Below are positions 5,048-31,264 of a stretch of 64,000 nucleotides of DNA, one piece after another. Source of the DNA: Minisyncoccota bacterium (GTDB lineage: Bacteria > Patescibacteriota > Minisyncoccia > Phycocordibacterales > WO2-35-19); contig JBAYKK010000004.1 of NCBI GenBank assembly GCA_041664625.1, positions 2,343-66,342 on the forward strand. Reading direction: 5' to 3'. The stretch's first letter is position 1. Each line of letters opens with the position of its first letter. The notes under the pieces are model-generated. The model was not told where the DNA came from, ran no database searches, and was given only the letters and a program-made list of their open reading frames with translations. Both the position numbers and the translations under genes were made by a program.

Positions 5048-5048
5048 A

Positions 5049-7452: not shown

Positions 7453-7533
7453 GCCGGGGTGGTGAAATGGTATACACGCCAGTTTTAGGAACTGGTGCCG
7501 CAAGGCATGGAGGTTCAAGTCCTCTCCCCGGCA
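7453..7533 (+). tRNA. tRNA-Leu (TAG), type II
   Basis: Acceptor GCCGGGG/CCCCGGC; anticodon stem CCAGT/ACTGG loop TTTAGGA; variable arm TGCCGCAAGGCA; T-loop TTCAAGT. Confidence 0.8.
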
Positions 7534-7536
7534 CAA
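7515..7536 (+). repeat. attL-like: tRNA-Leu(TAG) 3' end, duplicated at 31241-31264
   Basis: 'tcaag-tcctctccccggcacaa' here vs 'tcaagattcctctccccggcacaa' at 31241-31264 (17-nt exact core + 5 nt). Confidence 0.55.
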
Positions 7537-7595
7537 CGCAGTGAGACCGACCGAGACCGCCCAACAGAGCGACATTTCGGTCGAGTCAAGTTTGA

Positions 7596-7625
7596 GACGG
7601 GTTCAGGAATGGAACCTTGTTTTTT
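7596..7625 (+). terminator. Intrinsic terminator downstream of tRNA-Leu
   Basis: gggttc-aggaatg-gaacc hairpin followed by TTGTTTTTT. Confidence 0.55.
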
Positions 7626-7663
7626 ATGATTGACTTTTCATTTAACTGGCTCATAATGCATTC

Positions 7664-8260
7664 ATGAATGAATATGGTTTTCAAACTCAGCCCAAGGAAA
7701 AACACAATGTTTTTGTGAGTTTTCATAATAAAGATCAATATTATAGAGATCAATTTGATACTCTGTTCGGGCATCTATTCAATAGCAGATCTGTTGACGT
7801 AGGAGATATAGACCCCGAGAATGAAGACGAGTATATAAAAAAACTAATCCAAGAGAAGCACATAGAACCCTCAAGTGTCGTCTTTGCTTTGTATGGCAAA
7901 GAAACTCACCAACGCAAGCATGTTGATTGGGAAGTTTCTGCGGCTCTAAATAAAAAAGTGGGAGGCCATAAAGGTCTCGTAATTATGTTGATTCCAGGTT
8001 TCCCCATTGCTCCGTATAATGCGTTTAACCAATATGACGAAAGTGTAATATTCCCATATCTACACCCTCGCACTGCTGCAAATCTTAAAAGTGGTTATGC
8101 TGATCTTTACTATTGGCCAGGCCTCTTTACAAATTTTCCCGGAGTTCAAACATTCCCAATGGAAGATATTATCAAGAAAGCTTTCCTCAAGAGAGATAGC
8201 CACGAGCATTTGATTGATAATGGCGATATCCAATATAAAAGAAATCTATCATGGAACTAG
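7664..8260 (+). CDS. TIR-like domain protein (ThsB/DUF1863-type)
   Basis: 198 aa; 'NVFVSFHNKDQ' N-terminal TIR strand motif, 'SSVVFALYGKETHQRKHVDWEVSAAL' matches ThsB-type TIR core (cf. ThsB 'VFFSFHYQD', 'VTCVLIGSQTFNRRWVRYEI'). Confidence 0.6.
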   Translation: MNEYGFQTQPKEKHNVFVSFHNKDQYYRDQFDTLFGHLFNSRSVDVGDIDPENEDEYIKKLIQEKHIEPSSVVFALYGKETHQRKHVDWEVSAALNKKVGGHKGLVIMLIPGFPIAPYNAFNQYDESVIFPYLHPRTAANLKSGYADLYYWPGLFTNFPGVQTFPMEDIIKKAFLKRDSHEHLIDNGDIQYKRNLSWN

Positions 8261-8943
8261 CGAGTACAACTCTAATTAATTTATTTTCCGTATCTCTAAA
8301 TAAGTATCATTTACTATTTGATGTGAACCCTTGGTTAGTAGTAGGGGTGGTTTTATTAGCGCTACTTTTTATATTTGTTCGATGGCGTTTCGGGAAAATG
8401 CGTGGCCCTAATTTTGAAATTGATGCAGCTGAGATGGGAATCGGCCCTGGTAAAATTTCCTTCAAGCCAAATCTCAAAGATCAGGAAATCGCCTACAAAA
8501 TCTGGGTTGAGTTGAGTACAAGAAAGATTGGCCTTGATATTGATCTAAAACATGATGTCATTGCTGAAGTCTACGATTCATGGCACAGCTTCTTCTTGAT
8601 AACTCGAGAATTGATAAAAGATATTCCAGTAAATAAGGTGAAGAATAAAAGCACAAGAGAGATTATTGCTCTGTCTATTAATGTGCTTAACAAGGGTCTC
8701 CGCCCTCACCTCACAACTTGGCAGGCACGCTTCAGGCATTGGTATGAAAGACAGATTGAAAAGAAAGAGGATAGTGATATCGATCCGCAATTTATTCAAG
8801 CAAAGTATCCGCAATTTGAAGAGTTAAAAACTGATTTATTAGAGGTAAACAAGAGGCTTATTGCTTATAGAAAAAAGATGCATGAACTTGTCCTTGGTAA
8901 ATCAAAAGATGGAGAGGAGTTGTCAGAAAAAATTGTCTCCTAA
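8251..8943 (+). CDS. Membrane-anchored protein of unknown fold, translationally coupled to the TIR gene
   Basis: 230 aa; start overlaps TIR stop by 10 nt; one N-terminal TM helix (PWLVVGVVLLALLFIFV), ~180-aa soluble C-terminal domain with no family assignable by eye. Confidence 0.45.
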   Translation: MELASTTLINLFSVSLNKYHLLFDVNPWLVVGVVLLALLFIFVRWRFGKMRGPNFEIDAAEMGIGPGKISFKPNLKDQEIAYKIWVELSTRKIGLDIDLKHDVIAEVYDSWHSFFLITRELIKDIPVNKVKNKSTREIIALSINVLNKGLRPHLTTWQARFRHWYERQIEKKEDSDIDPQFIQAKYPQFEELKTDLLEVNKRLIAYRKKMHELVLGKSKDGEELSEKIVS

Positions 8944-10259
8944 ATTATCTTTACCTCCCTCCCACTCACTTGAATCCTGCTCTTGAGGCAATCCAGTAGC
9001 TCTCTTTTCTCCCACATAGTACCCTCTTGGAGAAGATACTTGGCATAGTTACGAATATCTATATCGACTACCTTTATTTTCTCCACTTTTTGTCCAAGAA
9101 GACTGGATTGGAATTTTTTATATCGCCCTACTTCAACTTTAATCTTTTCCTTCATTCCAATCTCGTCCAGATCAATTTTGTCCATTAGTTTGGAGAATTG
9201 CTGAATTAAATCTTTCTCTTCTATATATTTCGCCTTGCAGTGCTTATTCTTGGATCTGGAGCATCCATAGTATATGTATTTGTGAACATTGCCATTTTGC
9301 TGATGCTTATATTTTTCGCAAGCGGTTATGCCAGAACCGCACAAGGAGCAAGTCATGAGTTTGGTAAAAGCGTACTCTTTACCGTAATCTTTCATCACAT
9401 GCTCCGAAATATTTTCCTGGGTTTTGTCGAAAAGCTCTTTGGTGATAATTGGCTCATGCTTGCCTTGATACCATTTACCGCTTCCTGCCGGATATTCAAA
9501 TGTACCGTAGTAGAAGTGGCAGCGAAGTGTTAAGTATATGTTACCGAGAGCCAAAAATTTGTTGTTTTTAGTTTTAAACTTGATCTCATCTTTTAGCCAT
9601 TTATGCACTCGTCTGCCAGACCAGTTTTCATAAGCCACTTTTTCAAACATTTTCCTGACTATAGGTGCTCTGTAATGATCAACTTTAACCTGACATTTCT
9701 CATCTTTATTTTTGCTGTTTAGGTATCCAACTGGAGCCGGAGCTGGCCAAAGTCCCATCTCGCATCTAGCTCTCAAACCTCTTTTAACATTTTCAACCTT
9801 GTTGTCATTCTCGAGTTTGGCCTGACTTCCTAAAATCATGAGAAGAAATTTCTCGTTAGGATTGTTTGTAAATTTCTGACCTCCATTGGTTCGGATTTCT
9901 CTGAGTAATCCTTGATCCATTAGGTCCACGATTCTGCCAAGGTCTCCGGCATTTCTTGAAATCCTGTCCGGTGCCCAAGTTAAAATTCCGTCAAATTTTC
10001 CTTGTTTTATTTCCTCCACAATCTCGTTAAAAACAGGTCTCTGTCCCGCTTCTTTAGCAGAATGAGATTCTCTCTTTGTAACCACGATATCCAAACCATT
10101 TTCAGCTGCCATTCTTTCCATTTCTTTAACTTGGCTTTCTATGCTCAAAATTTGTTTATCCTCTTCCTCGGTGCTTTTACGAGAATATAAACAATATTTG
10201 ATCTTTGTTGGGACTACCACTTTCGTTTGAGTTCCCAAAGGACTTTGCGTTGTTTGCAT
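8940..10259 (-). CDS. Large serine recombinase (resolvase/invertase N-domain + recombinase + zinc ribbon)
   Basis: Catalytic 'YCLYSRKSTEEED...SIESQ' resolvase motif, recombinase domain, C-terminal Cys-rich ribbon; start at M10 supported by AAGGAA RBS (six-frame ORF extends to 10286). Confidence 0.85.
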   Translation of the reverse strand: MQTTQSPLGTQTKVVVPTKIKYCLYSRKSTEEEDKQILSIESQVKEMERMAAENGLDIVVTKRESHSAKEAGQRPVFNEIVEEIKQGKFDGILTWAPDRISRNAGDLGRIVDLMDQGLLREIRTNGGQKFTNNPNEKFLLMILGSQAKLENDNKVENVKRGLRARCEMGLWPAPAPVGYLNSKNKDEKCQVKVDHYRAPIVRKMFEKVAYENWSGRRVHKWLKDEIKFKTKNNKFLALGNIYLTLRCHFYYGTFEYPAGSGKWYQGKHEPIITKELFDKTQENISEHVMKDYGKEYAFTKLMTCSLCGSGITACEKYKHQQNGNVHKYIYYGCSRSKNKHCKAKYIEEKDLIQQFSKLMDKIDLDEIGMKEKIKVEVGRYKKFQSSLLGQKVEKIKVVDIDIRNYAKYLLQEGTMWEKRELLDCLKSRIQVSGREVKII

Positions 10260-10397
10260 ATTCCTTAAATTAGCTTGTATACCCAAGGAATGACGCTAAT
10301 CTCTATAAGAGTCTAGAGCATCTCGAGTTGGTAAGGTGTTTATACTCGCTCTTCAAAATGCTTTAAAATTGTGGCTTAAAGTGATAGTATTTCAATA

Positions 10398-13300
10398 ATG
10401 GAAATTGACCAAGATACATCTAAAAAAGTATTGGTTTTTATAAAAGAAAATCCTGGCAGTAAGGCACGGAAGATTTCATCTGTTCTTGATTTGGATAAAA
10501 AGGAAGTCAATAAATTACTCTATGGACCCCTCAAAGGCCAATGTAGACAAGATTCTGCGTACAACTGGTATCTAAAAGAAGATCTAAAAACAGAAGCGAT
10601 TACATCTATCAAACAAACGGTAAATACGCCTTTAGCTAGGCTATGCAATTATTATTCATCCTGTATTGCTGAGGATACCGGAGCAAAAGTTAGAGTGTTT
10701 GCTCAAAGTAAGTATGGGTTGGATTACAAGGAACTGGAAACAATTCCATCTTCTGAAGATACAAGCGAAATTTTTGAGTCATCAGAAGTACAAAATTTTT
10801 TAAATGAATCCCGAAAAGATAAATCCCAAATGTTATATTTTGGATATCCAGTATTAATGTCCCATGCACGTTCTAGCAAATCAGATTGGGAAGGATATTT
10901 TGTCAGTCCAATATTTCTATTTCCGATAAAAGTTGAAAACGACGGAGTAAATCTGGATCTAAATTTTCCGACTATAAATCGAGAAGTCTTGGAGCGATAT
11001 ACAGATGCAAAAGGCGAGGAGTTGATGAAAGAACTTGTTACCCTAGAAGAGGAACTCGGTATTTCAGGAGAAGGAGAACAACCTGAACTAGATGAGTTGA
11101 TTCAACGACTAAAGGTTTTACGTCCTGAATGGCAATGGGTTGAAGATCCTGATCCATACAACCTCGTGAAAGACCCTCCATTACGGGAATGTACTTCGGA
11201 AGGAATTTTTAATCGTGCAGTTGTAGTTAAAGTTCAGGAAGCTCCAAATAATTTTACGCAAGGTCTAGAATACGAATTAAGTCAATTGGCAAGGTTGTCT
11301 GAAAATGACTACAAAGACACAGCGTTGGGTCAATGGATATATAGAAATATCGGAGACGCAGGCGAGAAAAATTTAAACTCTTTGCTTGAGGTGTTCCCTA
11401 TGAATCTAGAGCAACGCGAAGCTGTTCAGAATGCACTAGTAAATGATCTGACCATTATTACCGGACCACCAGGTACCGGAAAATCACAAGTAGTTACTAA
11501 CTTACTTATCAATGCCGCTTGGCAAAAAAAGCGAGTGTTATTTGCAAGTAAAAATAACAAAGCTGTTGATGTAGTTGAAAGTCGTGTGAATAATATCGGA
11601 ACACGTCCAATTCTTTTACGTCTTGGTGGCAAGGGTGATTATCAAGATCAATTAGTTTCCCATCTTTCAAACTTGCTTGCTACAACCGTGGATCAGCAAG
11701 ATGAGCGGGAATTTGCAGAACGAAAACAAGAATTTGAAGATGTGCATGCCGAGCTGTTAAATATTGACTCGCAAATTAATGATTTAGTAATTCTTAGGAA
11801 TAAAGTCGATGAATTAGATAGAGATATTAATGATGCCAGAAATGATCTATCAGAGGATATTTTTGCTCTTATAAAAAATAAAAGATTTTTAAGTGTTAAA
11901 CCTGAAATTGAAATTTTGCTTAATAAATTAGAGTATGCGCTAAAGCCCAAAATTTCGTTTTTTGAAAAAATTGGAGAATTTCTTTTTGGTAGCAAAATAA
12001 GTAACGATATTATTGCAAGAACTACAGAGTTACAAGGTACTCTATCTGAACTTGATATTAGTATTCCAACACAGCCATTAAATAAGTACTCGCAGCAAGT
12101 TTGGGTTGTATTTAAAGATGAGTTACAGCATCGCTGGAATCAAACAGAGCGAGTAAGAAAATATTTTTATTCTCTAGAAGAACTGCAAAAATCTGATTCG
12201 TTGGAGACATTAACTAAACAAAGACTGAATCTTTTAAATAGGATGTCCGATAAATCTTCAGTACTTTGGAAGTTGTGGCTCAAGTTGCAAATTGGGCGAT
12301 TGTCACACGATGACAGATCTCTCCTTAGCCAATATAGATCTACTTTGCAAATGGCCTCTGGCTCTAATCCTACACAAAGTGTCTGGAGAAATTACTATAG
12401 CCAATCACAAAAAATTTCTCATATTCTATCCACTTGGGCTGTAACGTCACTATCAGCAAAAGGTAGAATTCCGCTTAGTAAAAATATATTTGATCTGGTA
12501 GTTTTCGACGAATCAAGCCAGTGTGATATTGCTTCTGCACTCCCACTTCTATATAGGGCAAAGCAAGCTGTAGTTATTGGAGATCCTAAACAGCTGTCTC
12601 ATATTAGTTCAATCTCTAAAAAACAAGACGAGCGTCTTTTGGAAAAATATGGTTTATTAGATACCCATAGCGATTGGGCATATTCATATAATTCTCTATT
12701 TGATCTTGCGGCTGGTCTTTCGCGCGGTACTGGTATTATTGATTTACGAGATCACTATAGGTCTCATGCAGATATTATTAATTTTTCAAATCAATTCTTT
12801 TATAAAGGCCGCCTTAGAATCGCAACTCGATACGATTCACTTAAACGGCCAAAGGACGAAAATGCAGGTATTAGGTGGATAAATGTCGAAGGTCGTGCAG
12901 AAAAAGCACCACTGGGTAGTGGATCACAAAATAAACAAGAAGCTGAGGTGGTAGTTACAGAGCTACGAAGACTTTTTGAGCAAGGATATAAAGGAACTAT
13001 TGGTGTTGTTAGTCCATTTAGGGCACAAGCCAATTTGATACGTAAATTAATCAACGAGGATAGTGAACTCCTTGGATGGTTATCTACATGCGAATTTATA
13101 AGTGAGACTGTTCATAAATTCCAAGGGGATGAGCGAGATATCATTATATTTTCACCTGTCATTTCTAAAGGCATGCCTAATGGTTCAACGCTATTTCTAC
13201 AGAAAACGGGGAACCTGTTTAATGTGGCTATTACTCGCGCGCGAGCAATGTTAATCGTTATTGGCGACCACGAAGCCGTACTTCACTCTGATATTTTGTA

Positions 13301-13727
13301 CATGGAAAAGTTTGCCCAACACGTCAATGAAATTGGTAAACAAAAAGAATATAAAATAATACAAAGTACCAGTCTCGGTCCAGAGTATCCGACAGTTAAA
13401 AATCCAGAGTTAGTTTCAGATTGGGAACATATTTTTTATAAAGCTTTATACGATGCTGGGATATGTCCAATTCCTCAGTATCAGGAAGAAATGTATATTC
13501 TAGATTTTGCAATTTTTGACGGAGACAAAAAACTTAATATAGAAATAGACGGAGAACATTATCATAAAGATTGGACTGGAGAATTATGCTACAGAGATCA
13601 AATGAGAAACCAGAGAATGTATGAATTGGGTTGGGATGTGATGAGATTCTGGGTGTATGAAGTCAGGGATGATCTAGACGGTTGTATCAAAAAAATTAAT
13701 GATTGGATAAGTCCAAGTAATAAGTAA
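10398..13727 (+). CDS. Superfamily-1 (Upf1/DNA2-like, AAA_11/AAA_12) helicase fused to C-terminal DUF559 (Vsr-like) endonuclease; N-terminal winged-helix-like region
   Basis: 1109 aa; Walker A 'GPPGTGKS', 'VVFDESSQ', 'VHKFQGDERD', motif VI 'VAITRAR'; C-terminus 'LDFAIFDGDKKLNIEIDGEHYH...GWDVMRFW' = DUF559. Confidence 0.8.
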   Translation: MEIDQDTSKKVLVFIKENPGSKARKISSVLDLDKKEVNKLLYGPLKGQCRQDSAYNWYLKEDLKTEAITSIKQTVNTPLARLCNYYSSCIAEDTGAKVRVFAQSKYGLDYKELETIPSSEDTSEIFESSEVQNFLNESRKDKSQMLYFGYPVLMSHARSSKSDWEGYFVSPIFLFPIKVENDGVNLDLNFPTINREVLERYTDAKGEELMKELVTLEEELGISGEGEQPELDELIQRLKVLRPEWQWVEDPDPYNLVKDPPLRECTSEGIFNRAVVVKVQEAPNNFTQGLEYELSQLARLSENDYKDTALGQWIYRNIGDAGEKNLNSLLEVFPMNLEQREAVQNALVNDLTIITGPPGTGKSQVVTNLLINAAWQKKRVLFASKNNKAVDVVESRVNNIGTRPILLRLGGKGDYQDQLVSHLSNLLATTVDQQDEREFAERKQEFEDVHAELLNIDSQINDLVILRNKVDELDRDINDARNDLSEDIFALIKNKRFLSVKPEIEILLNKLEYALKPKISFFEKIGEFLFGSKISNDIIARTTELQGTLSELDISIPTQPLNKYSQQVWVVFKDELQHRWNQTERVRKYFYSLEELQKSDSLETLTKQRLNLLNRMSDKSSVLWKLWLKLQIGRLSHDDRSLLSQYRSTLQMASGSNPTQSVWRNYYSQSQKISHILSTWAVTSLSAKGRIPLSKNIFDLVVFDESSQCDIASALPLLYRAKQAVVIGDPKQLSHISSISKKQDERLLEKYGLLDTHSDWAYSYNSLFDLAAGLSRGTGIIDLRDHYRSHADIINFSNQFFYKGRLRIATRYDSLKRPKDENAGIRWINVEGRAEKAPLGSGSQNKQEAEVVVTELRRLFEQGYKGTIGVVSPFRAQANLIRKLINEDSELLGWLSTCEFISETVHKFQGDERDIIIFSPVISKGMPNGSTLFLQKTGNLFNVAITRARAMLIVIGDHEAVLHSDILYMEKFAQHVNEIGKQKEYKIIQSTSLGPEYPTVKNPELVSDWEHIFYKALYDAGICPIPQYQEEMYILDFAIFDGDKKLNIEIDGEHYHKDWTGELCYRDQMRNQRMYELGWDVMRFWVYEVRDDLDGCIKKINDWISPSNK

Positions 13728-13778
13728 TCAAACACTAAATAAAAATATATTATTTAGAATTTTTATTTAAAAAAATTT

Positions 13779-14579
13779 ATGTTCATACCAAAAAAAATTC
13801 TTTGTGCTGTCGGCGGGGTTGTAGTGTTAGTCGCTGTTTTCTTAATTGGGGTCTCGTCTGGAAATAAAAGTGAAAATTTAATATCAGAACAAACTGCGAC
13901 AGTGGTAGATTCAGATACGGCTAATACCAGTATTACTCCCAAATCTGGTGAGTTGGTCAAAGTGGTCAGAGTAGTAGATGGCGATACCATTAATGTTGAA
14001 ATAAATGGCAAAGTAGAGCCGGTGCGATATATAGGTATTGATACTCCAGAGACAGTTGATCCACGCAAGCCGGTACAATGCTTCGGAGTTGAAGCGTCAA
14101 AGAAAAATAAAGAATTAGTGGATGGTAAAATGGTGAGATTGGAAACTGATATCACTGATCGCGATAAATACAATCGACTACTTCGTTATGTTTGGCTTGA
14201 TGACAAGCTAATAAATCAGGCGTTAGTAGAACAAGGTTACGCTAAGTCATACTCATACCCTCCAGATATTAAATACCAAGATAAATTTGTGGTAGCCGAA
14301 AAACAGGCCAGAGAAAATAAACTGGGTCTTTGGACCGCTTGTGCTTCAGAAACAACTACGACGACAGTTCCAACTCCAACACAAACATCTTCATCTACTT
14401 CCGATCCTTCCTGTACCATTAAGGGTAATATAAGTTCGTCAGGAGAGAAGATTTATCACATGCAAGGTTGTGGTTCGTATTCAAAAGCCACCATAGATGA
14501 AAGTCGTGGTGAAAAATGGTTTTGTACAGAAACAGAGGCCCAATCTGCAGGTTGGAGAAAAGCTTTAAATTGTAATTAA
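13779..14579 (+). CDS. Secreted/membrane-anchored thermonuclease (SNase-like) with Cys-containing C-terminal domain; paralog of 54154-54954
   Basis: 266 aa; N-terminal TM; SNase motifs 'VVDGDTINV', 'RYIGIDTPE', 'NRLLRYVWLD', 'KLGLW'; ~88% nt identity to second copy. Confidence 0.8.
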   Translation: MFIPKKILCAVGGVVVLVAVFLIGVSSGNKSENLISEQTATVVDSDTANTSITPKSGELVKVVRVVDGDTINVEINGKVEPVRYIGIDTPETVDPRKPVQCFGVEASKKNKELVDGKMVRLETDITDRDKYNRLLRYVWLDDKLINQALVEQGYAKSYSYPPDIKYQDKFVVAEKQARENKLGLWTACASETTTTTVPTPTQTSSSTSDPSCTIKGNISSSGEKIYHMQGCGSYSKATIDESRGEKWFCTETEAQSAGWRKALNCN

Positions 14580-14587
14580 AATATAAA

Positions 14588-15577: not shown

Positions 15578-15581
15578 AAAT

Positions 15582-15737
15582 ATGAAAAAACCGAAATTCA
15601 TAAATCTTACAGTATTTATAATCTTTTTTGGAACAGCGCTTTTTGGAGCATTTCAGAAACAAAATTGGATAGAGGTAACACTCTATTTGGCTTTGGGCGT
15701 TCTGTTTCTTTGGGCAGATAGCCAAAGAAAAACTTGA
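15582..15737 (+). CDS. Small hydrophobic protein (51 aa)
   Basis: Two predicted TM segments; located between mltG paralog and acidic peptide gene. Confidence 0.25.
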   Translation: MKKPKFINLTVFIIFFGTALFGAFQKQNWIEVTLYLALGVLFLWADSQRKT

Positions 15738-15861
15738 AATAGTTCTTGGGGTTTCTTATCATGCTCGCAATTATATTCTATTTCGGATATAAGAAAGGCG
15801 AAAAACCGCGTTGGCAGTGGGGACCGTCTAAAGATAAGAAATAAACATAACAATATAAAAT

Positions 15862-16005
15862 ATGGACTCTGATGAAATTTTAGAGCTGGTAAAAGAAGGT
15901 ATTATTGAACCAGACCAGGTCGAGGATTTTGAAAACCTTGACCCCGAAATTCAAGAATTGGTAGCCAATAGCGATTTAGATATAGATGAAGCTTTGGGTT
16001 TGTAG
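15862..16005 (+). CDS. Small, highly acidic protein (47 aa)
   Basis: MDSDEILELVKEGIIEPDQVEDFENLDPEIQELVANSDLDIDEALGL; paralogous copy at 61652-61796 is interrupted by a stop codon. Confidence 0.4.
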   Translation: MDSDEILELVKEGIIEPDQVEDFENLDPEIQELVANSDLDIDEALGL

Positions 16006-23766: not shown

Positions 23767-23838
23767 GTCAATCCAATAATAAGGGTAAAGTGCGAACCAA
23801 AAAACAACAGCAAACGCCGTTGTTTTTTGGTTCAATAA

Positions 23839-24342
23839 TTATTTCTCCGGCTTGCCAAAAAGCTGAACTACAAAAATAGCCTCTCTCCCCTTATATATAC
23901 CTGTCGAAGTTGCGATTCCAATCTCGATAAATTTGTTATTCATAATATTGGTAAAATGTTTCGGTGAATTCATCCAAGCGGTTTCTATATCATCACTATC
24001 TTCAAAATTTACAGCCAAATTTTCTCCCGCGTATTCATATTTATAACCAGCTTGCTCAAACCAATACCAAGGTGTTTTGCCATCAGGCGTATTATGTGAA
24101 AAATAACCTTTAGCTGCCATATCGTCAGCTTTCATTTGTGCCGCTTTTTCTAAAACAGGATTGACTTTGAGTTCAGAAAGATTGGCAGACGCACGATTTT
24201 TATTGGTAAGGTTGACCAAGACTGAAGCATAGACGCTTGAAAGAGCTTCAAAAACTGAGGATCTGAAATTCAATAAAAAAGAAAACCCAATTACAACCAC
24301 GATCATGGTGATTGTAAGTTTTTTGTAGTTTCGCTTTGACAT
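23839..24342 (-). CDS. CAP/SCP (PR-1-like, YkwD-type) domain secreted protein
   Basis: 167 aa; N-terminal TM/signal; 'NKNRASANLSEL...GYFSHNTPDG...GENLA...WMNSPKHFTNIM' CAP motifs. Confidence 0.6.
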   Translation of the reverse strand: MSKRNYKKLTITMIVVVIGFSFLLNFRSSVFEALSSVYASVLVNLTNKNRASANLSELKVNPVLEKAAQMKADDMAAKGYFSHNTPDGKTPWYWFEQAGYKYEYAGENLAVNFEDSDDIETAWMNSPKHFTNIMNNKFIEIGIATSTGIYKGREAIFVVQLFGKPEK

Positions 24343-24384
24343 TATAAGTTAACTATATAGAAAAAAGGTGATTTTTCAAGTTAA

Positions 24385-25083
24385 TTATAGAAATCCCATA
24401 CTTTTCAAAATACCGATTCTATATTCGGAAGCTGGCATATCAAAATTTATCGTCTTGATTTTATTTTTCAATAATTTACGGAAATACAAAGATACGGAAA
24501 AAATATGTAATTTTTCAAATTCAGTTTTTATAGCAGAGTTATTGAAAGACTTTATAGAAACATTGAAAAATGGATCGAGCCTGTCCGACTTGGATATTGG
24601 CATCCAGTATATAAGCAGTGGCTGTGTCTTTGAATATTCTTTCGGTAATTTCATTTTGCCAAAAACTTTTGTTACTCCACTAGGGTATTTTTCATTTGAA
24701 AATTCTGTTTTCATCTGATGAGACCAATAATTATTCGTAACTTTTTTAGTTTCTTCTTCATCGGCATTTACAGCCAAGAACTTACCACCTATGGCAGTAG
24801 CCGACCAGTTTTTTATCTCGCATTGGAATAATGTCTTATTACCACCCTTATCTACTTCTATCCATCTATCCAATCTTTTCCCTTTTGAAGTCCCCGGGGT
24901 AACACAAAGAGGTTTTGAATTATCATCACAAAGGATTTTTGCCTTGCCGCCATTATTGTCTATGTAATGTTTGAAAGCACATGCATTGAGTTCCTCGCCG
25001 ATCATACCAACTATTGCACTTGCGTGTCCACGCACTGAAGGATTGTCCAAAAATTCCAAACATTTTATTATATTTATTTTCAT
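24385..25083 (-). CDS. Hypothetical protein, possible PD-(D/E)xK nuclease
   Basis: 232 aa; 'LDRWIEVD...QCEIKNW' fits a D...ExK pattern; otherwise unassigned. Confidence 0.25.
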   Translation of the reverse strand: MKINIIKCLEFLDNPSVRGHASAIVGMIGEELNACAFKHYIDNNGGKAKILCDDNSKPLCVTPGTSKGKRLDRWIEVDKGGNKTLFQCEIKNWSATAIGGKFLAVNADEEETKKVTNNYWSHQMKTEFSNEKYPSGVTKVFGKMKLPKEYSKTQPLLIYWMPISKSDRLDPFFNVSIKSFNNSAIKTEFEKLHIFSVSLYFRKLLKNKIKTINFDMPASEYRIGILKSMGFL

Positions 25084-25255
25084 GCCTTTAATAATGCCAC
25101 AATGTCTCCAATTATCCAGATGTTGGTAACTCCTCTTCGCAACCTTCTATATCTAAGCTAAGATACCCAACGATAGCAAAAAGTGCTATCATAACTTTGA
25201 CAACTTAATAGCAAGAGGAAGCCTAAACCATCCAGTCGATGGCATGGCATCCGAA

Positions 25256-25391
25256 GCAAGAACAACGCACGACACAAGAAAACCCGTTATTAGGGCGTGT
25301 CGTGCGTTACCAGGGGAAACTCTGGTAGAGGTTACCGCAAGGTACCTTCCTAGTAGCGGGCTTTGTTGTTCTTGTTTTAATCGCACGACAA
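25256..25391 (+). promoter_or_regulatory. Structured 5' leader (riboswitch-like) with alternative pairing that can sequester the translation-start region of 25392-26048
   Basis: CGCACGACA occurs at 25267-25275 and again at 25382-25390 (abutting the ATG); complementary GUGUCGUGCG at 25297-25306; enclosing helix CAAGAACAAC/GUUGUUCUUG; internal hairpins with GNRA-type loops (GCAA; GGGAAAC). Confidence 0.3.
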
Positions 25392-26048
25392 ATGGAAAAT
25401 GAATTAAAGTCTTCCGAGGTTAAGACTAAAAATATAACCTTAGGTTCGATTATTGGTTGGATATTTGGAGTGGTAATCGGAATCACTGGAATAATTAATA
25501 TATTCAGTAATCCGCTTTCAGGTTTGTTATTTATATTAGCTACAGTCATAACTCTGCCTCCTGCAAATAAATATTTGAAGGAGAAGATGCACATCTCTCT
25601 TTCAAAAGGAGTAAAGATAGTTTTGGTACTGATACTTCTTGGGGTCGCTGGAAGTCAGGTTGGAGAAAAAGCCAAAACGGAAGCAGTTCAAACTGTCAGT
25701 CAGACAACGGAAAAAGTTGAGGAAGTGGCAGAGCTGCCAAAAATAACAGCAAAGCAGATAGTTGATGACTATAAAGCTAACGAGGTATCTGCTGATGCTA
25801 AGTACAAGGGCAAAGAATTTGAGATTTCTGGCGTAGTGGAAACTATTGGCAAAGATATTATGGATACTCCATATATAGCTCTTGAGAGTTACGAATACGC
25901 TATCATCGACAAAGTGCAGTGTATGTTCAGTAAAGGATCTGAAGCTGAATTGGCTGCAGTTTCCAAGGAGCAGAAGATAACTCTAAAAGGTGAGATATCC
26001 GGCAAGCTTGGAAATATTCTTGTGAAGAGGTGTGAGATAGTGGATTAA
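25392..26048 (+). CDS. Membrane protein of unknown function
   Basis: 218 aa; two N-terminal TM helices, Lys/Glu-rich linker, C-terminal ~100-aa domain. Confidence 0.4.
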   Translation: MENELKSSEVKTKNITLGSIIGWIFGVVIGITGIINIFSNPLSGLLFILATVITLPPANKYLKEKMHISLSKGVKIVLVLILLGVAGSQVGEKAKTEAVQTVSQTTEKVEEVAELPKITAKQIVDDYKANEVSADAKYKGKEFEISGVVETIGKDIMDTPYIALESYEYAIIDKVQCMFSKGSEAELAAVSKEQKITLKGEISGKLGNILVKRCEIVD

Positions 26049-27559
26049 TTCAAGTAATATATCCTTGGCACTACCGGCGGCGCTTCAATGACACTCAGAA
26101 CCATATTGGCAAAAGCATCGGCCAAGTCGTCGTGTTTTTCCACTCCAAAGTGAACGATCTGTTGGATCAACTGCTCCGCTCCTTCTTTTGGAAAAAGTAC
26201 TTTACCGCTTTTGATCATATTGGCTGTTAGCACCAAACGACTTCGCTTGTCTTGATTACCGGGTCGAGTCGTCATCACCTCTCTCACACCCTCGGTTTGC
26301 ATTTGTTGAGGCAGAGCTTTTTGATAGCCGACATCTTCAACAACAAACGTCGGTTCCATGCCACCATGCTCATAACTTTTATCAAACAATTTACACATTT
26401 CAACCGTCTCCGGAAAATTCATTCTTTTGTTTATAATCTTGGGCAGAATATATATCCTGTAATAGTCTTCAAGTTCATAGAGCATAGCAGGTACTATGGC
26501 TGTGTAATCAGCGGCATCGTTTTTTGAAATAGCAGGGTCAACACCAATGCGTACTTCCATGTGAGAAGAATATCCACTTCTGAATTTCATAGGTTTAGGA
26601 ATGGCATCATAGTACTGAATCCATTCCTTATGTATCGCCTGATCTTCCGCCGGAACGATATTTAAGAGATACTCTCTTTGCCACGCAAATTCATTAGCTG
26701 CTTTACTTTTTTCTTCATCAATTGTCGCCATGTCAGGATACTTACCCAACCAAAGTATCTCCCCATTTTGTATCAAAGGATACGACTTGAAGATTCCATT
26801 TATTTTCCCATTATCAATATCTTCTTTAAGACGCATGAGGAGAGAGTCTTCGTGCAAGAGGTTACCGATGATCACGAGTCTTGTGTTGCGATCTCCGGCA
26901 GGAATGACTTCACCAGTTAGCCACTGATACGTTTTATTCCTACCTTCTCTAGTCTTAGTAGAAGCAATATCTTCCAAGTCGTCGCCAATAATAAGGTCTG
27001 GTCGGTGCTGATCGTGACGTAGACCTCTGATACTTTGCTCAGAAGATACTGCCGTGATCCTGGCATTCAGTTTGGAGAAGACCAGAGATGATGAACCCCA
27101 CTCATTGTGTTCTTCTTGGAATGGTCCAAGGTCGTTTTTGAGAAGAGTGTTACTCTCCAATTCTCGACGCAAGTTCATCATATGCTGTTTAGCTTGAGCT
27201 TGGGTTTGGCACAAAATTAGCACGAACTTCTTCTGCTGTTCTCCAAGAATTGCCCAGACAGGATATGAGGTAGTAAAGATGGTCGACTTGGCCGAGCCTC
27301 TAAAGGCAACAACGAAAAGATTCTTCACGTCCTCTCTTTCACTCAAATGGAACAACTCTTTTTGGAATGGCGCTGTCGCATATTTTACGTAGTGAGCGAA
27401 GTAGAAGTGAAAGAAGAGGAAATGGCTATGTTTAGCTATTTCGCTTCTCACCTGTCTATCTGAGAACATTTTATCCGCAAGTTCTGGAGTGAGGCCGCTG
27501 TTAGGTTTGTAATTTGAACTATCATTATTTATTTTCTTCATGATTATTTTGATTAACAT
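26045..27559 (-). CDS. Phage terminase large subunit
   Basis: 504 aa; Walker-A-like 'FRGSAKST'; C-terminal nuclease motif 'IGVDPAISKNDAADYTAIV' and 'DDLADAF' typical of TerL RNaseH-like domain. Confidence 0.7.
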   Translation of the reverse strand: MLIKIIMKKINNDSSNYKPNSGLTPELADKMFSDRQVRSEIAKHSHFLFFHFYFAHYVKYATAPFQKELFHLSEREDVKNLFVVAFRGSAKSTIFTTSYPVWAILGEQQKKFVLILCQTQAQAKQHMMNLRRELESNTLLKNDLGPFQEEHNEWGSSSLVFSKLNARITAVSSEQSIRGLRHDQHRPDLIIGDDLEDIASTKTREGRNKTYQWLTGEVIPAGDRNTRLVIIGNLLHEDSLLMRLKEDIDNGKINGIFKSYPLIQNGEILWLGKYPDMATIDEEKSKAANEFAWQREYLLNIVPAEDQAIHKEWIQYYDAIPKPMKFRSGYSSHMEVRIGVDPAISKNDAADYTAIVPAMLYELEDYYRIYILPKIINKRMNFPETVEMCKLFDKSYEHGGMEPTFVVEDVGYQKALPQQMQTEGVREVMTTRPGNQDKRSRLVLTANMIKSGKVLFPKEGAEQLIQQIVHFGVEKHDDLADAFANMVLSVIEAPPVVPRIYYLN

Positions 27560-27995
27560 TATTAATTTCTTCTAATACTGCAGTCGGCTCCTCTTCTGGA
27601 GGAGATTCCTGTGGATTTTGCGGGGCAAGAGAAGCCAGACGAAGAGCTTCTCTCACTGTTGCTTCTTGCTCTGGAGTCAGAGCGTCTTCTTTATCAAGGT
27701 GAGCCGTAATATCAATGCGATTTTTATAAGTCGCATGATTGTTTCGAAGCCAGAACATAATTCCGGACATGTTGCCTTCCTTAATGGCAGAGATGAGCTG
27801 AGATTCAGCTAGATCATTTACCAGAAGCGAGCCGTCACGCAGAGCCTCATCCGCCTTGTCCACAAACTCCTTGTCCTCCTTTCGCCAGAAGTAATATGTG
27901 GATCGACCAATGCCTAGCTTTTGGCAAGCGGTTTCCACGATGGGAGTTTTCTTTAACTGCTCTAAAAGCAATTCTTTGTTTGCATTAGTTTTCAT
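27525..27995 (-). CDS. HTH protein, putative terminase small subunit
   Basis: 156 aa; HTH 'VETACQKLGIGRSTYYFWRK'; directly upstream of and overlapping TerL; acidic C-terminus. Confidence 0.45.
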   Translation of the reverse strand: MKTNANKELLLEQLKKTPIVETACQKLGIGRSTYYFWRKEDKEFVDKADEALRDGSLLVNDLAESQLISAIKEGNMSGIMFWLRNNHATYKNRIDITAHLDKEDALTPEQEATVREALRLASLAPQNPQESPPEEEPTAVLEEINNVNQNNHEENK

Positions 27996-28765
27996 ATCTT
28001 TTTGGATTTAAAACCTGTTAATTTTTCAAAGCGGTCAATGATTGTTTGGCAGTATTCAGAATCCAACTCGACCATAAAGCACCTTCTCTTCGTCTGTTCG
28101 CAAGCGATTAAATCGGTTCCTGAACCTCCAAAACCGGAATACACCAAGTCTCCAATATCGGTACTATTTAGAATTAGATGCCTCACGAGGCCAACCGGCT
28201 TCATAGTCGGATGCAGACTGCTTTTATTCGGCTTGGGGAAACAGAGTACCGATTTGTCCTTCGACTTCTTGAAGTCATGGGTGCCATACCAACCGAAAGC
28301 AATGAGTTCGTGCATTGGAAGATAATCTTTCCTGCCGATAACCGAGTGATTTTTGACCCAGATGAGGAGTTGAGAGAATGTGATTCCAGCTTCGGCCATA
28401 CCCTCCCTTAGAGCAAAAATCATTTTGTCCGAGTTGAAGATGTAGAAGCTATTTTTTCTTTCGAGATATGGCTTCACCGCTTCTATCCAGTCGTGAGTGA
28501 ATCTCCTATACTCGGCATCGCTCTGGATGTGGTCATTGACGATCACTTTATTTTTCAAAAGTGTTTTGAAATTCTGTTTGCTCTCCGCGACTGCTACGCC
28601 ATATGGCACATCGGTAATGACCGCTTTAATTTTCTCTTTGCCGATAAGTTTCTTTACCAATTCTTTGTCTCTTGCATCACCGCATGCAAGAAAGTGGGAT
28701 CCGAGTTGGAAAATATCGTCAACTTTAATTGAGCTTTTTGGCTTTGTTGCCGCTGATTTTTTCAT
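27992..28765 (-). CDS. DNA methyltransferase (N4/N6, PF01555-like)
   Basis: 257 aa; motif IV-like 'VITDVPYG'; AdoMet motif 'VYSGFGGSGTDLIACE'. Confidence 0.75.
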   Translation of the reverse strand: MKKSAATKPKSSIKVDDIFQLGSHFLACGDARDKELVKKLIGKEKIKAVITDVPYGVAVAESKQNFKTLLKNKVIVNDHIQSDAEYRRFTHDWIEAVKPYLERKNSFYIFNSDKMIFALREGMAEAGITFSQLLIWVKNHSVIGRKDYLPMHELIAFGWYGTHDFKKSKDKSVLCFPKPNKSSLHPTMKPVGLVRHLILNSTDIGDLVYSGFGGSGTDLIACEQTKRRCFMVELDSEYCQTIIDRFEKLTGFKSKKI

Positions 28766-29996
28766 ATCGATTGATTATTACTTGAGTAAATACTGGTTCT
28801 ACTTCTGCAAGGAAAGCTTGACGCTTCAATCCTTCGCAGGCGACCATAAGACTTCCTGATCCAGCGCAGAGATCCAAAATTACGTCTCCAACTTTGCTAC
28901 ACCTTCGGAAGGACTTCTCATACAAACTCGGTGGCTTCATGGTCGGATGTTCGTACTGATTTCCAGGCAATCTTTTGACCAACCATATTTGGAGCATGTC
29001 CAAAACATCGTCTATCAGACGATTACCGCTACCGATTTCTCGATTCATCACTTCGTTCAGATTTTTTACATTCTCAGAAAGGAATGGCTTGCCTTTGGTG
29101 CCGTACATACACAGCTCGACCGTTCGGTTAAAAGCCACCTGAGGAGTGGGGTTGTGCGATCCTTTAATCCACATGCAGAGCCTTTTGAAATTCACTCCTG
29201 ATTCTTTGAAGATGGTCTGGAAATTCCCAACATATTTTTCATCGAGCCAAGTGAAGACATGACAATTGTCCTTGCTAACCGATAGAGCGTTTAGGAGAAT
29301 GCTTTTAACAAAATGTTCGTATTCTGCCTCGGATTTTTTATCATTAGTCTTACCACCATAATTCTGCCTGCCTCCAAGCCCAGCCGAATAGTCGACCCCT
29401 ATGTTGTAAGGAAAATCTATATTTATAAGATCCACCTTTTCTTTACCAAGAAGCTTCTCGATATTTTTTGATTCAGTACTGTCTCCACAAAGAAGTCGGT
29501 GATGTCCAAGCTGAAAAAGATCCCCAGATTTTATAGAGGTCTTTTTTGCTTTTTCTATCTCCTCCTCAACATCTAGCTCGTCATCCTCGATTGAGAGATT
29601 CTCGTCCCAGATGTGGCTCAAATCTTCGTTTTCAAAACCGACATCAAGCAACATGTTTATATCGAAGGATTTAAGGAGATCAAAATCCCAAGCCCCCTGA
29701 TTGGCATTCATGCGGAGCAGAAGCTCACGCTCTTTTTCCTCACTTGGGATATTAAGGTATATGACAGGCACGGTCTCGTATTCAAGCTCTTTCGCCATCT
29801 CTAAGCGAAAGTGGCCAGAGATCAGGCAACCCTTTCTTTTTGGAGATGAATTGACCAGAAGTGGCTCCGTTAAACCGTGCCGTTTTATACTTTCCTTTAG
29901 ATCACTTCTGGCCTTTTCGCTCCAGTATCGCGGATTATTTGGAGATGGTATAATGCAACTAACAGACACATATTCTACTTTCAATTTTTGATTCAT
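28725..29996 (-). CDS. ParB-like nuclease domain fused to DNA methyltransferase (N4/N6)
   Basis: 423 aa; N-terminal ParB/Srx 'IIPSPNNPRYWSEKARSDLKESIKRHGLTEPLLV'; 'NIDFPYNIG' motif IV; 'ILDLCAGSGSLMVACE' AdoMet site. Confidence 0.8.
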   Translation of the reverse strand: MNQKLKVEYVSVSCIIPSPNNPRYWSEKARSDLKESIKRHGLTEPLLVNSSPKRKGCLISGHFRLEMAKELEYETVPVIYLNIPSEEKERELLLRMNANQGAWDFDLLKSFDINMLLDVGFENEDLSHIWDENLSIEDDELDVEEEIEKAKKTSIKSGDLFQLGHHRLLCGDSTESKNIEKLLGKEKVDLINIDFPYNIGVDYSAGLGGRQNYGGKTNDKKSEAEYEHFVKSILLNALSVSKDNCHVFTWLDEKYVGNFQTIFKESGVNFKRLCMWIKGSHNPTPQVAFNRTVELCMYGTKGKPFLSENVKNLNEVMNREIGSGNRLIDDVLDMLQIWLVKRLPGNQYEHPTMKPPSLYEKSFRRCSKVGDVILDLCAGSGSLMVACEGLKRQAFLAEVEPVFTQVIINRYEKISGNKAKKLN

Positions 29997-30077
29997 AAAT
30001 TTCCTGATAAAACTAATAAAGTCGTAACGAAGTGTTACGACTTTATTGAATCAAACTCAAAAATATGTTCTGGGATT

Positions 30078-30932
30078 TTATTCGGTACTTTTCCCCAGAT
30101 CTTTTTTGTATCTTTTTTGTCTTAGCTCTCGAAGTTCTCTTGGTACCTCGTAAACCTGATCCGATCTAATCCTTTTGCCAGTATCGCACTTAACATTTTC
30201 CGCAATTTCTTTAGCGCTTAACTTGTAATATTCCTGATCACCCTCGTTAAATACCTCTCTATTTTGGTGATAGCGATCAATCACTATTTTCGTATCAATA
30301 TCTTTAAGAGGACTAAAGGACGGTAGATCTTTCCCCACTAAATCATTGATGTAATATTTAAGGTGCTTAAGATCGGCGTCGGTCAGCTTCATATAAAATT
30401 TGATGGTTACAGATTTTTCTCCCTTCCTTCTGTTTTCGTCGCGTATCTCCACAAATGGAATGATGGGCGTATTTGATATCTCGTTATATAAAATGTAGTG
30501 ATAGATTGGGTTGTGATAACTTGATGGCACATTAAAATCTTTTATAATGAAATCAATTTGGCGAGTGAAATAATTGACTGGCAATGGATCATGTAATTTA
30601 TATGTCATCTCGTCGTGTTGTTTTTGGTTGATTTCTCCGGCGTTAAGCTGTTGCCTCAGATTTTTTAATTTTTTCCAAAAATCATTGTCCGCCATACTTT
30701 CTGAACGGCTACACATTTCTCTATACCATTTTGCACATTTATCATCTCTATCTGGTGTTTCTTTATCAAATCCACCCAGCGGTAATTTCAAATATTCCCG
30801 TATCTTTTTGATACGGCTCTGGAACTCAAGATCCGAAAAAAGAAGCTTGATATCATCCAAGATTCTTCTTTTGGCTGGAAAGTGCATGTCCTTGTTAGAT
30901 CTTTTCTTTAGCATATTTCCATTATACCGCAT
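30078..30932 (-). CDS. Hypothetical protein (prophage-associated)
   Basis: 284 aa, Lys/Asp-rich, no recognisable family. Confidence 0.35.
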   Translation of the reverse strand: MRYNGNMLKKRSNKDMHFPAKRRILDDIKLLFSDLEFQSRIKKIREYLKLPLGGFDKETPDRDDKCAKWYREMCSRSESMADNDFWKKLKNLRQQLNAGEINQKQHDEMTYKLHDPLPVNYFTRQIDFIIKDFNVPSSYHNPIYHYILYNEISNTPIIPFVEIRDENRRKGEKSVTIKFYMKLTDADLKHLKYYINDLVGKDLPSFSPLKDIDTKIVIDRYHQNREVFNEGDQEYYKLSAKEIAENVKCDTGKRIRSDQVYEVPRELRELRQKRYKKDLGKSTE

Positions 30933-31240
30933 ACAAAATTAGACACTGCACCTGATCCTTAAGGAGTGTCTAATCTGTCTAATTCTAAAATTTAGAGCTG
31001 ACTGAGACCCTTAAACGTGTTATATTGAAATTACCTCAAAGGTCTTTACGGTGCCCCACCTATGGAGGTACCAGACTGGAGAGGGGCACAAATTAAATGA
31101 CTGGATTTTTCCAGTCTTTTTAATTTGTGCTGGGAGAAAGCAAACTGCTTTGCTTTCGTGAGAGGACGCGAAAACCTTGAGTATATTTTCGAGAAGCTTT
31201 GCTTTGAGAAAATACGAAAGGTGTACAGATTCTGTAAGAA

Positions 31241-31264
31241 TCAAGATTCCTCTCCCCGGCACAA
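31241..31264 (+). repeat. attR-like partial copy of tRNA-Leu(TAG) 3' end
   Basis: 'tcaagattcctctccccggcacaa' matches 7515-7536; GC-rich 17-mer in AT-rich DNA, direct orientation, 23.7 kb from the tRNA. Confidence 0.55.

Follow-up and report, generated by a model that had tools for sequence, protein, structure and literature searches.

A likely 23.6-kb integrative element at the 3' end of a tRNA-Leu gene in Candidatus Zambryskibacteria, with a large serine recombinase and satellite-like gene content

The window analysed here is a stretch of 64,000 nucleotides (nt) of contig JBAYKK010000004.1 from a member of Candidatus Zambryskibacteria (Patescibacteria, or candidate phyla radiation, CPR). Its flanks encode infB, rbfA, pilins of the type IV secretion system (T4SS) type, gyrA and uvrABC. 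In between, a tRNA-Leu(tag) gene detected by ARAGORN and by Rfam (tRNA, 57.8 bits) is followed by the putative mobile element that is the subject of this report, then by a short structured segment and by rnpB. An original prediction, made from the letters alone, had described a prophage or integrative element of ca. 23.7 kb running from this tRNA gene to a duplicated fragment of its 3' end immediately upstream of rnpB, and both flanking genes were recovered where it had placed them. With 48 bits against an Rfam gathering score of 100, rnpB was missed by the default Rfam scan. The features of the integration site are listed below, attL and attR being the left and right attachment sites.

7453..7534, + strand: tRNA-Leu(tag) gene, the 3' end of which is the left arm of the integration site; intact after insertion
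7509..7558, + strand: attL, made of the tRNA-Leu 3' arm, then AC (7533-7534), then the element-side arm AACGCAGTGAGACCGACCGAGACC
7535..31089, no strand assigned: mobile element, 23,555 bp
31064..31113, + strand: attR, made of the element arm ...AGACTGGAGAGGGGC, then AC (31088-31089), then the host sequence AAATTAAATGACTGG
31090..31264, + strand: structured host segment of ca. 175 bp, outside the element, its last 17 nt (31248-31264) being a copy of a 17-mer of the tRNA 3' end
31313..31724, + strand: rnpB (RNase P RNA), full-length match to RF00010, bacterial RNase P class A (E 1.4e-13, 48 bits)

That this interval has been inserted is indicated by the situation found in relatives of the host. 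Seven of them (L013-L019; loci and contigs fetched for comparison carry L numbers) were obtained by a scan for IF-2, keeping one genome per species, and show 65-78% amino acid (aa) identity; five are labelled Candidatus Zambryskibacteria or Patescibacteria group and the others Saccharibacteria and Levybacteria. The order infB-rbfA, tRNA genes Cys-Leu(taa)-Lys-Leu(tag), then rnpB is found in all seven, with the Cys and Leu(taa) genes inverted in L018, and the distance from tRNA-Leu(tag) to rnpB ranges from 50 bp to 1.1 kb. Beyond rnpB, where the loci extend that far, occur homologues of a 404-aa and a 491-aa protein (u404/u491), pilins, a solute-binding protein and gyrA, which correspond to the window genes located at 31.8-41 kb. 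None of the genes of the 7.6-31 kb interval was detected by tblastn at this locus in any of the seven, which means that the interval is inserted DNA, as had been predicted. The orientation of rnpB relative to tRNA-Leu was seen to flip, being + in the window, L017 and L018 and - in L013-L016 and L019.

The limits of the inserted DNA are given by a second copy. Exact-protein look-ups of the first and last genes of the element led to sample SRR13007711 (host B, the organism of the window being host A) and to two of its contigs, L012 for the left end and L021 for the right end. In L012, tRNA-Lys and tRNA-Leu(tag) differ from those of the window, the acceptor stem of the latter being GCTGGGG/CCCCAGC in place of GCCGGGG/CCCCGGC; after ...AGCACAA the contig continues with CGCAGTGAGACC... 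and is identical to the window over 958 of 958 nt from position 7537, so that all 19 differences between the two sequences fall inside tRNA. L021 corresponds to window positions 21316-31089 with 2 mismatches in 9774 nt (99.98% identity) and ends within the gene of a large surface protein, which it carries from 21316 on. On the other side its identity to the window stops after GGGGCAC: the right junction reads ...GAGAGGGGCAC|AAATTAAATGACTGG in the window and ...GAGAGGGGCAC|CACGTAGGAAATTGC in L021, the flank of which contains a different gene and no rnpB. Since two flanking proteins of host A have no record in SRR13007711 by exact-sequence look-up, the second host is another organism; and since its copy stops at the equivalent of position 31089, the mobile unit is 7535-31089 and does not reach 31264. 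The 99.98% identity between the two hosts points to a very recent transfer.

Only GCAC is common to all four junctions, while within host A the shared sequence is GGCACAA (4-7 nt). The pre-insertion site of host A, when reconstructed, reads tRNA...CCCCGGCAC|AAATTAAATGACTGG, that is the tRNA followed by a terminator-like hairpin, much as in the relatives; that of host B reads ...CCCAGCAC|CACGTAGG and would correspond to an encoded CCA end. Taken together, these data make it likely, and we hold this with good confidence, that 7535-31089 is a 23.6-kb integrative mobile element of Candidatus Zambryskibacteria, driven by its large serine recombinase LSR1 and forming a satellite-like island of cargo and defence genes.

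Both junctions are spanned without a break in the window and in ENA contig k141_100757. JGI contigs end at window position 7440 and start at 7497, and Logan contigs start at 7507 and 7539. Four independent short-read contigs from three samples (L002, L009, L010 and L011) have an end no more than 100 nt from the left junction, in one case a start at 7539, a few bases beyond the inferred crossover. Such breaks may stem from alternative junctions in the populations, or simply from tRNA sequence being repetitive; as a decisive sign of population heterogeneity they were rejected, because tRNAs and an internal repeat at 13758 also break short-read assemblies.

The placing of the right end at 31241-31264 in the original prediction relied on the 17-mer TCCTCTCCCCGGCACAA, for which what had been reported was verified. 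It occurs exactly twice in the window, at 7520-7536 and 31248-31264, both on the + strand; the likeness of the two copies extends to 22 nt as TCAAG, a 2-nt indel, then the 17-mer; and in 100 dinucleotide-preserving shuffles no match was found, even with 2 mismatches allowed. A repeat that is exact, direct and far beyond chance, and that lies just before rnpB, the next gene after tRNA-Leu in the relatives, speaks for a classical integration into the tRNA 3' end that would have produced a 23.7-kb element (7453-31264) bounded by a direct repeat of 17-22 nt. This explanation is nevertheless hardly credible given what is found around the repeat. The copy in host B ends 158 nt short of it, the second 17-mer starting 158 nt beyond the right end of the element. 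L017, which has no element, carries ca. 170 nt past its tRNA-Leu the sequence AAAGGTGTACAGATTCTGTAAGAATCAAGATTCCTCTCTTGCCCACAA, the first 30 nt of which are identical to window positions 31218-31247 while the remainder copies the 3' end of L017's own tRNA. In L109, which has a related element, the 17 nt that end the element at attR are kept (...AGACTGGAGAGGGGCAC) and are followed by the same segment and then by rnpB. Finally, no tyrosine integrase was found with Pfam and PHROGs (see below). The repeat is thus part of a recurring intergenic motif, present in L017 and L109, an outcome that the original prediction had named as refuting it; this tells against the repeat as a boundary and leaves the element itself untouched.

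The segment that ends in the 17-mer has homologues of ca. 140-175 nt (window 31090-31264; L017 12284-12462; L109 9661-9822, minus strand). It is missing from L018, where the sequence after the tRNA resembles, by eye, that of L017 after the copy, so that the segment behaves as a separate small insertion; in L014 this place is taken by an unrelated segment of 120 nt, delimited by a repeat of 20 nt from the tRNA end of L014. Folding z-scores against shuffled sequence were -6.9 and -8.9, and the consensus fold of the three sequences pairs the whole 17-mer with an inverted copy located upstream, 6 pairs of the fold being compensatory. This inverted copy tracks the tRNA acceptor of each host in the three species, a change of GATTC/GAATC to GATCC/GGATC being among those observed, so that the repeat co-varies with the host's own tRNA while remaining paired within a conserved fold. 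The 17-mer therefore belongs to an older feature lying between the element and rnpB and is not the end of the element. Candidate identities for the segment are a structured RNA, a pseudo-attachment site and a relic of some older element.

The genes and RNAs located within the element are as follows.

7664..8260, + strand: ThsB-like TIR protein, defence cargo encoded on the attL side of the recombinase gene (Pfam ThsB_TIR, E 2.9e-14; PADLOC ThsB, E 9e-10)
8251..8943, + strand: 230-aa protein with a hydrophobic N-terminal stretch, overlapping the end of the TIR gene; no Pfam, PHROGs or PADLOC match
8940..10259, - strand: LSR1, large serine recombinase and presumed integrase (Resolvase, Recombinase, Zn_ribbon_recom)
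10398..13727, + strand: superfamily 1 (SF1) helicase fused to a DUF559/MTES_1575 nuclease (Pfam AAA_11, AAA_12, MTES_1575, DUF559)
13779..14579, + strand: SNase (Pfam)
14588..15577, + strand: YceG/MltG (Pfam)
16298..16930, - strand: NTP_transf_6 nucleotidyltransferase, cargo (Pfam, E 5e-53)
16989..17107, + strand: LOOT RNA copy 1 (RF03000, 78.8 bits), immediately preceding the S8 protease gene, which has the same orientation
17194..20115, + strand: secreted S8 subtilase (S8 protease), cargo (Pfam)
20146..23766, + strand: 1206-aa surface protein with immunoglobulin (Ig)-like and peptidoglycan (PG)-binding domains, cargo (Pfam)
23839..24342, - strand: CAP-domain protein (Pfam CAP, E 3e-21)
24385..25083, - strand: 232-aa protein; no Pfam or PHROGs match
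25220..25346, + strand: LOOT RNA copy 2 (RF03000, 50.1 bits), directly upstream of the tRNA_anti-like gene
25392..26048, + strand: tRNA_anti-like OB-fold membrane protein (PF12869, E 5e-25)
26045..27559, - strand: TerL, large terminase subunit (phrog_38, E 1.4e-74)
27525..27995, - strand: TerS-like helix-turn-helix protein, small terminase subunit (weak PHROGs matches, E ~1e-6)
27992..28765, - strand: N6_N4 methylase (Pfam, PHROGs)
28725..29996, - strand: ParB_N-methylase (Pfam, PHROGs)
30078..30932, - strand: 284-aa protein, first gene inside the right end; no Pfam, PHROGs or PADLOC match

Read along the minus strand, the element consists of the 284-aa gene, an operon of ParB-methylase, methylase, TerS-like and TerL genes (26045..29996), ca. 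16 kb of cargo (10.4-26 kb), LSR1, a further 1.3 kb of cargo (the TIR and 230-aa genes) and, at the junction, tRNA-Leu. The genes that had been listed for the interval are present, namely those of the serine recombinase, helicase-nuclease, SNase, MltG, S8 protease, surface protein, CAP protein, TerL, TerS (with weak matches) and two methylases. The announced pair of TIR genes was found to be a single one: only 7664-8260 encodes a TIR protein, and its 230-aa neighbour, a possible partner of the TIR protein, has no family match and corresponds neither to ThsA nor to any other PADLOC model. The best PADLOC matches of the helicase-nuclease are MkoC/MkoA (Mokosh), PDC-S37 and Hhe, which classes it as defence-like cargo, so that the predicted presence of defence genes is borne out by Pfam and PADLOC for both proteins. 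The tRNA_anti-like protein resembles phage superinfection exclusion proteins (phrog_8545, 'superinfection exclusion Sie-like', E 3e-14). Only 3 homologues of the 284-aa protein were found among 5.8 billion proteins, one of which (55% identity) occupies the same position in L109. No capsid, portal or tail gene was detected in the element with Pfam and PHROGs, and the three proteins without a family (230, 232 and 284 aa; 746 aa in total) gave no sign of a hidden integrase or phage protein, none having a match in Pfam or PHROGs and the 230- and 284-aa proteins none in PADLOC. Contrary to one of the two identities first proposed, the element is not a recognisable prophage.

LSR1 is the only recombinase detected in the element by Pfam and PHROGs. 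Its three domains (PF00239, PF07508, PF13408) all score above cut-offs, it matches the integrase family phrog_95 (E 1e-59), and its translation displays a YSRKST...Q catalytic-serine motif near the N-terminus. With the same databases, no Phage_integrase match, as expected for a tyrosine integrase, was obtained in the open reading frames (ORFs) of at least 150 aa or in the three proteins without a family. Serine integrases perform a 2-bp crossover between dissimilar sites and tyrosine integrases use a 6-8-bp overlap; the 4-nt common core thus fits the chemistry of the former and is too short for the overlap of the latter. On the evidence of the junctions, LSR1 would recombine an attP site (...AGACTGGAGAGGGGC-AC-AACGCAGTGAGACCGACC...) with the 3' tip of tRNA-Leu(TAG), strand exchange taking place at or beside the discriminator A and the following C. 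The predicted 50-mers are GGAGGTACCAGACTGGAGAGGGGCACAACGCAGTGAGACCGACCGAGACC for attP and GGAGGTTCAAGTCCTCTCCCCGGCACAAATTAAATGACTGGATTTTTCCA for the attB of host A. Such a reaction would leave the tRNA intact and would produce no long target duplication.

More than 8000 homologues of LSR1 were retrieved at E <1e-20. The top 120 are 66-100% identical to it and ca. 440 aa long; the few of these that have a source name are recorded as recombinase or DNA invertase, mostly from unclassified bacterial metagenome-assembled genomes (MAGs) and in one case from the Parcubacteria group. By comparison, LSR1 and TerL are each ca. 25% identical at best to anything in 50,697 deposited phage records. The surroundings of LSR1 relatives were compared in 47 distinct metagenomic loci having at least 300 nt downstream of the gene. 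A convergent tRNA gene lies downstream within 300 nt in 9 of the 47 and within 3 kb in 21, and a non-convergent tRNA in the first 300 nt downstream, or a tRNA of either orientation in the 300 nt upstream, was found in none of the 47.

Directly after the tRNA discriminator, or after the encoded CCA, these loci display conserved element-side motifs that fall into classes. Class 1, A-N5-GTGAGACCGAC, follows tRNA-Leu(tag), Leu(taa), Arg(gcg), Arg(cct) and Ile(tat), the pattern in relatives being ..AC|A-N5-GTGAGACCGAC after these other tRNAs, and it also occurs beside the two closest recombinases (87-88% identity). Class 2, AACCAAGGYCGACGC / CCAAGGYCGACGC, follows Gly, Val, Leu(caa) and Arg(tct) tRNAs and is also found at the tRNA-Glu of a second element in the window (see below). 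A GACAAnTTTTTTATCG class follows Ser tRNAs and a fourth class follows Tyr. The motifs also occur in loci where, as in the window, recombinase gene and tRNA are 1.3-2.4 kb of cargo apart, and most junctions of the relatives have AC after the acceptor stem of the tRNA. From these junction sequences the recombinase family would be expected to integrate at the tRNA 3' tip, and the element-side arms appear to track the tRNA that is targeted.

Several loci depart from this simple arrangement. In L030 (ca. 1.5 kb past tRNA-Ile) and in L053 (10000-10250), the stretch from the real tRNA to the recombinase gene contains a tRNA-3'-like fragment followed by AC and by an element-side motif, which suggests tandem or accreted attachment sites. 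In L036 (ca. 3069) and L038 (ca. 9677), the class-1 motif is preceded by a GC-rich ...GGCGGGCTTGGTGTCCACGCCGGAGTAC with no recognisable tRNA end, and the target may be another structured RNA gene. Finally, in L040 the recombinase gene is followed after 15 nt by a tRNA (6615-6690) to which ARAGORN assigns the anticodon tta, which reads the UAA stop codon; it may be a suppressor tRNA beside such an element.

When ORFs of the loci of 10 relatives were clustered, only four families proved to be conserved: ParB_N-methylase/methylase, TerS, TerL and the recombinase. TerL is absent from 4 of these 10 loci and, where present, lies 0.1-2.5 kb before the recombinase gene. No capsid, portal or tail gene is conserved among the 10, nor was one found in the annotated viral contig L113. 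The succession of ParB-methylase, TerS, usually TerL, then the recombinase recurs in ca. 11 metagenome loci, the order beside the recombinase being seen in L053, L063/64, L070, L087, L089 and L109. TerL also led to 7 further IMG/VR contigs, all of which display it as far as they extend (L111 starts only at TerS, and L116 breaks off inside TerL). In L113 an island of ca. 15.5 kb is located between two tRNA genes and contains an S24/LexA-like repressor, the backbone, a reverse transcriptase and genes resembling type III restriction-modification (R-M), then the recombinase. The cargo lying between TerL and the recombinase differs completely from one relative to the next.

A further component of these elements is an RNA. 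The non-coding RNA that had been noted in the interval without a class is indeed present, in two copies, and corresponds to LOOT RNA (RF03000), both copies scoring above the gathering score of 46.4. Loci with the ParB-methylase/TerS backbone carry LOOT in 11 of 12 cases, that is 9 of 10 relatives, L109 and the window with its two copies (besides the window: L052, L053, L056, L064, L070, L071, L081, L087, L089 and L109), whereas none was found in 8 recombinase loci devoid of this module (126 kb searched). The suggestion that the RNA travels with such elements is thus supported. In every case LOOT immediately precedes a cargo gene of the same orientation, and the genes that follow it, where annotated, encode secreted or membrane proteins: tRNA_anti-like proteins in four cases including the window (the same arrangement occurring in L064, L089 and L109), DUF4352, PG_binding and the S8 protease. 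LOOT has the appearance of a 5' leader linked to the elements of this family.

The window also contains a second element of the same family, which extends from 48706 to ca. 62000 at the 3' end of tRNA-Glu(ttc) (48706-48778) and the recombinase gene of which is located as follows.

48896..50197, - strand: LSR2, 69% nt identity to LSR1 over 660 nt

LSR2 sits 118 nt from the 3' end of the tRNA and has the class-2 element-side motif ATTCAAGGCCGACGCG. It is followed by an EcoRI-like methylase and a GmrSD/HNH-type restriction enzyme (a type II R-M system according to PADLOC), a DUF2726 protein, a second SNase-MltG pair (SNase2-MltG2), then DKNYY and PG-binding secreted proteins. A scan of 48.9-64 kb for a tRNA-like arm marking the far end found nothing, the same scan on relatives having mostly met other tRNA genes. 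By self-BLAST of the window, the second SNase-MltG pair (54131-55962) has 85% nt identity to the first. An SNase gene adjoins the recombinase in L055 and an MltG gene occurs near the backbone in L070, so that, with both elements of the window, the pair can be regarded as recurrent cargo; its expected association with such elements holds for the pair in the LSR2 element and for only one of the two genes in L055 and L070. The pair has probably been exchanged between the two co-resident elements. A duplicate of 295 nt without a called gene (16003-16297 versus 61318-61612) is more conserved between the elements than the adjacent SNase-MltG genes (94% versus 85%), and 15860-16004 is likewise duplicated at 61650-61794. 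The 295-nt stretch has no Rfam match on either strand and is absent from all other fetched loci. Elsewhere in the window, a 46-nt inverted repeat (95.7% identical) occurs at 5043-5088, just after infB, and at 47202-47158, inside the uvrB reading frame.

These duplications raise the question of whether the interval is a composite of several separate insertions that do not move as a unit, namely a recombinase and defence islet (7.5-13.7 kb), the SNase-MltG block, the secreted-protein genes and a terminase/methylase remnant (26-31 kb). Besides the SNase-MltG pair and the 295-nt segment found again elsewhere in the window, the GC content across the interval is uneven (0.34-0.43), one short-read contig spans exactly 7507-13880, the cargo between TerL and the recombinase is wholly different among relatives, and the contigs of the second host do not cover the middle of the element. 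The break at 13880, however, coincides with the start of an internal repeat. Both extremities occur together in the second host, with 100% and 99.98% identity and precise junctions at the same tRNA, and one of them carries the terminase operon and the other the recombinase, halves of a backbone that are adjacent in relatives. Cargo has certainly accreted in the past, which does not prevent the whole from moving as one unit today, and we consider a composite of independent insertions unlikely.

Several observations nonetheless weigh against an integrative element that moves as a whole from 7535 to 31089. The second host shows only the left 1 kb and the right 9.8 kb, window positions 8495-21315 (12.8 kb) lying outside its contigs, and exact-protein look-ups of LSR1 and MltG1 did not return SRR13007711. 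No recombination directionality factor was identified in the element. A replication module is absent as well: no primase or Rep domain was found, and the only helicase is fused to a nuclease and is best matched by defence models. The assignment of TerS is weak, and the position of the crossover is deduced from sequence identity. The excised circle (attP) and a same-strain empty site were not seen in the metagenome_contigs and viral_contigs collections with a 50-nt degenerate pattern for attL, attR, attP and attB; this junction scan works on the window, and as the known attR was not returned there either, the collections probably do not hold these samples. Spread between cells, the weakest step of the proposed mechanism, would most likely take place satellite-like in the capsids of a purely conjectural helper phage, or else through uptake of DNA.

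The related element of L109 is to be weighed on the same side. It occupies the same site in a third host, which is as distant from host A as are the element-free L013 and L014 (solute-binding protein 77% and GyrA 88% aa identity), and its proteins have diverged from those of the window about as much as host genes have (ParB-methylase 80%, methylase 86%, TerL 66% aa identity), so that part of the history of the family at this site may be vertical descent. Its cargo is different, with VWA/CobT_C and AAA_5 proteins, and such an element in L109 with none in L013 and L014 implies gain, loss or replacement at this site over long times. Divergence at the pace of host genes, a set of TerL, TerS-like and methylase genes without structural genes, and no attP or empty site seen in the same strain are what a decayed prophage remnant, fixed in the chromosome and immobile, would also display. 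Such a remnant is very unlikely here: a near-identical element in a host with a different tRNA and flank indicates very recent transfer, the LSR1, TerL and methylase genes are intact ORFs, and the same backbone free of structural genes is found in ca. 20 independent contigs, which random decay would not give. An element that is still mobile remains our reading.

Beyond this single copy, the data can be extended to a broader proposal, which we put forward tentatively and with more doubt than conviction. Patescibacteria would host a very large undescribed family of satellite-like islands with conserved large serine recombinases aimed at the tRNA 3' tip (discriminator/CCA), sub-families being matched to different tRNAs by modular element-side arms; the backbone would consist of ParB-methylase, TerS, usually TerL and a LOOT leader that precedes a gene for a surface or exclusion protein, defence genes would have their hotspot between TerL and the recombinase, and the islands would currently be moving genes between CPR bacteria. 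No description of tRNA-targeting serine recombinase islands or prophages in CPR/Patescibacteria was found in the literature, coverage of which was incomplete, and the LSR1 element family is apparently large and undescribed. To our knowledge, mobile elements and horizontal transfer in these bacteria are poorly documented, and here one element has been caught in two CPR species at 99.98% identity with both junctions defined to the base; if this is correct, such islands are now moving genes between CPR bacteria. While tRNA genes are the classic target of tyrosine integrases, an abundant and conserved family of serine integrases reading tRNA 3' ends would be a new target class, and since serine integrases serve as genome-engineering tools, a family that reads tRNAs could be useful. 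LOOT, so far an orphan Rfam family, would gain a testable context, and the first biological one. A caution also emerges, in that a convincing repeat of a tRNA fragment beside an island need not be its boundary.

Compared with known systems, the element shares features with several of them and coincides with none. Classical tRNA islands, which rely on a tyrosine integrase, are also inserted at a tRNA 3' end, leave the tRNA functional and carry variable cargo including defence genes; here no tyrosine integrase was found and the far boundary has no 15-50-nt duplication of the tRNA 3' end. Temperate phages and elements with large serine integrases (phiC31, Bxb1, SPbeta and, for SCCmec, CcrAB) have a very short crossover identity and the recombinase gene at one end of the element, and LSR1 has the same domain architecture as their integrases. 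In SCCmec the target is likewise a 3' end, that of a conserved housekeeping gene, and cargo builds up. The targets of known serine integrases are mostly protein-coding genes or intergenic sites, whereas the whole family described here would target the tRNA 3' tip, with many isoacceptors.

Phage-inducible chromosomal islands (PICIs), including the Staphylococcus aureus pathogenicity islands (SaPIs), and other phage satellites are likewise site-specific islands with a packaging gene (TerS), no virion of their own and accessory and defence cargo, and relative L113 also has a CI/LexA-like S24 repressor divergent from the packaging operon. The present elements differ in that the integrase is a large serine recombinase and not a tyrosine one, TerL is usually present too, and neither a primase/replication module nor capsid-remodelling genes were found; no helper phage is known for them, and the 23.6-kb copy is larger than a typical PICI. 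The tycheposons of Prochlorococcus are also cargo-carrying integrative elements of streamlined genomes inserted at tRNA genes. Among tycheposons and cryptic elements, 910 of 937 use tyrosine recombinases and leave partial tRNA repeats (bioRxiv 10.1101/2020.12.28.424599). A minority of tycheposons has a large serine recombinase, a PICI-like subset carries TerS or a capsid protein, and many have replication genes (bioRxiv 10.1101/2020.12.28.424599). In the family described here, likened to tycheposons by their description, the large serine recombinase is the rule, the backbone is made of ParB-methylase, TerS, TerL and LOOT, and the hosts are CPR bacteria. By analogy, the tycheposon/PICI-like group would be the nearest described counterpart of the Zambryskibacteria element.

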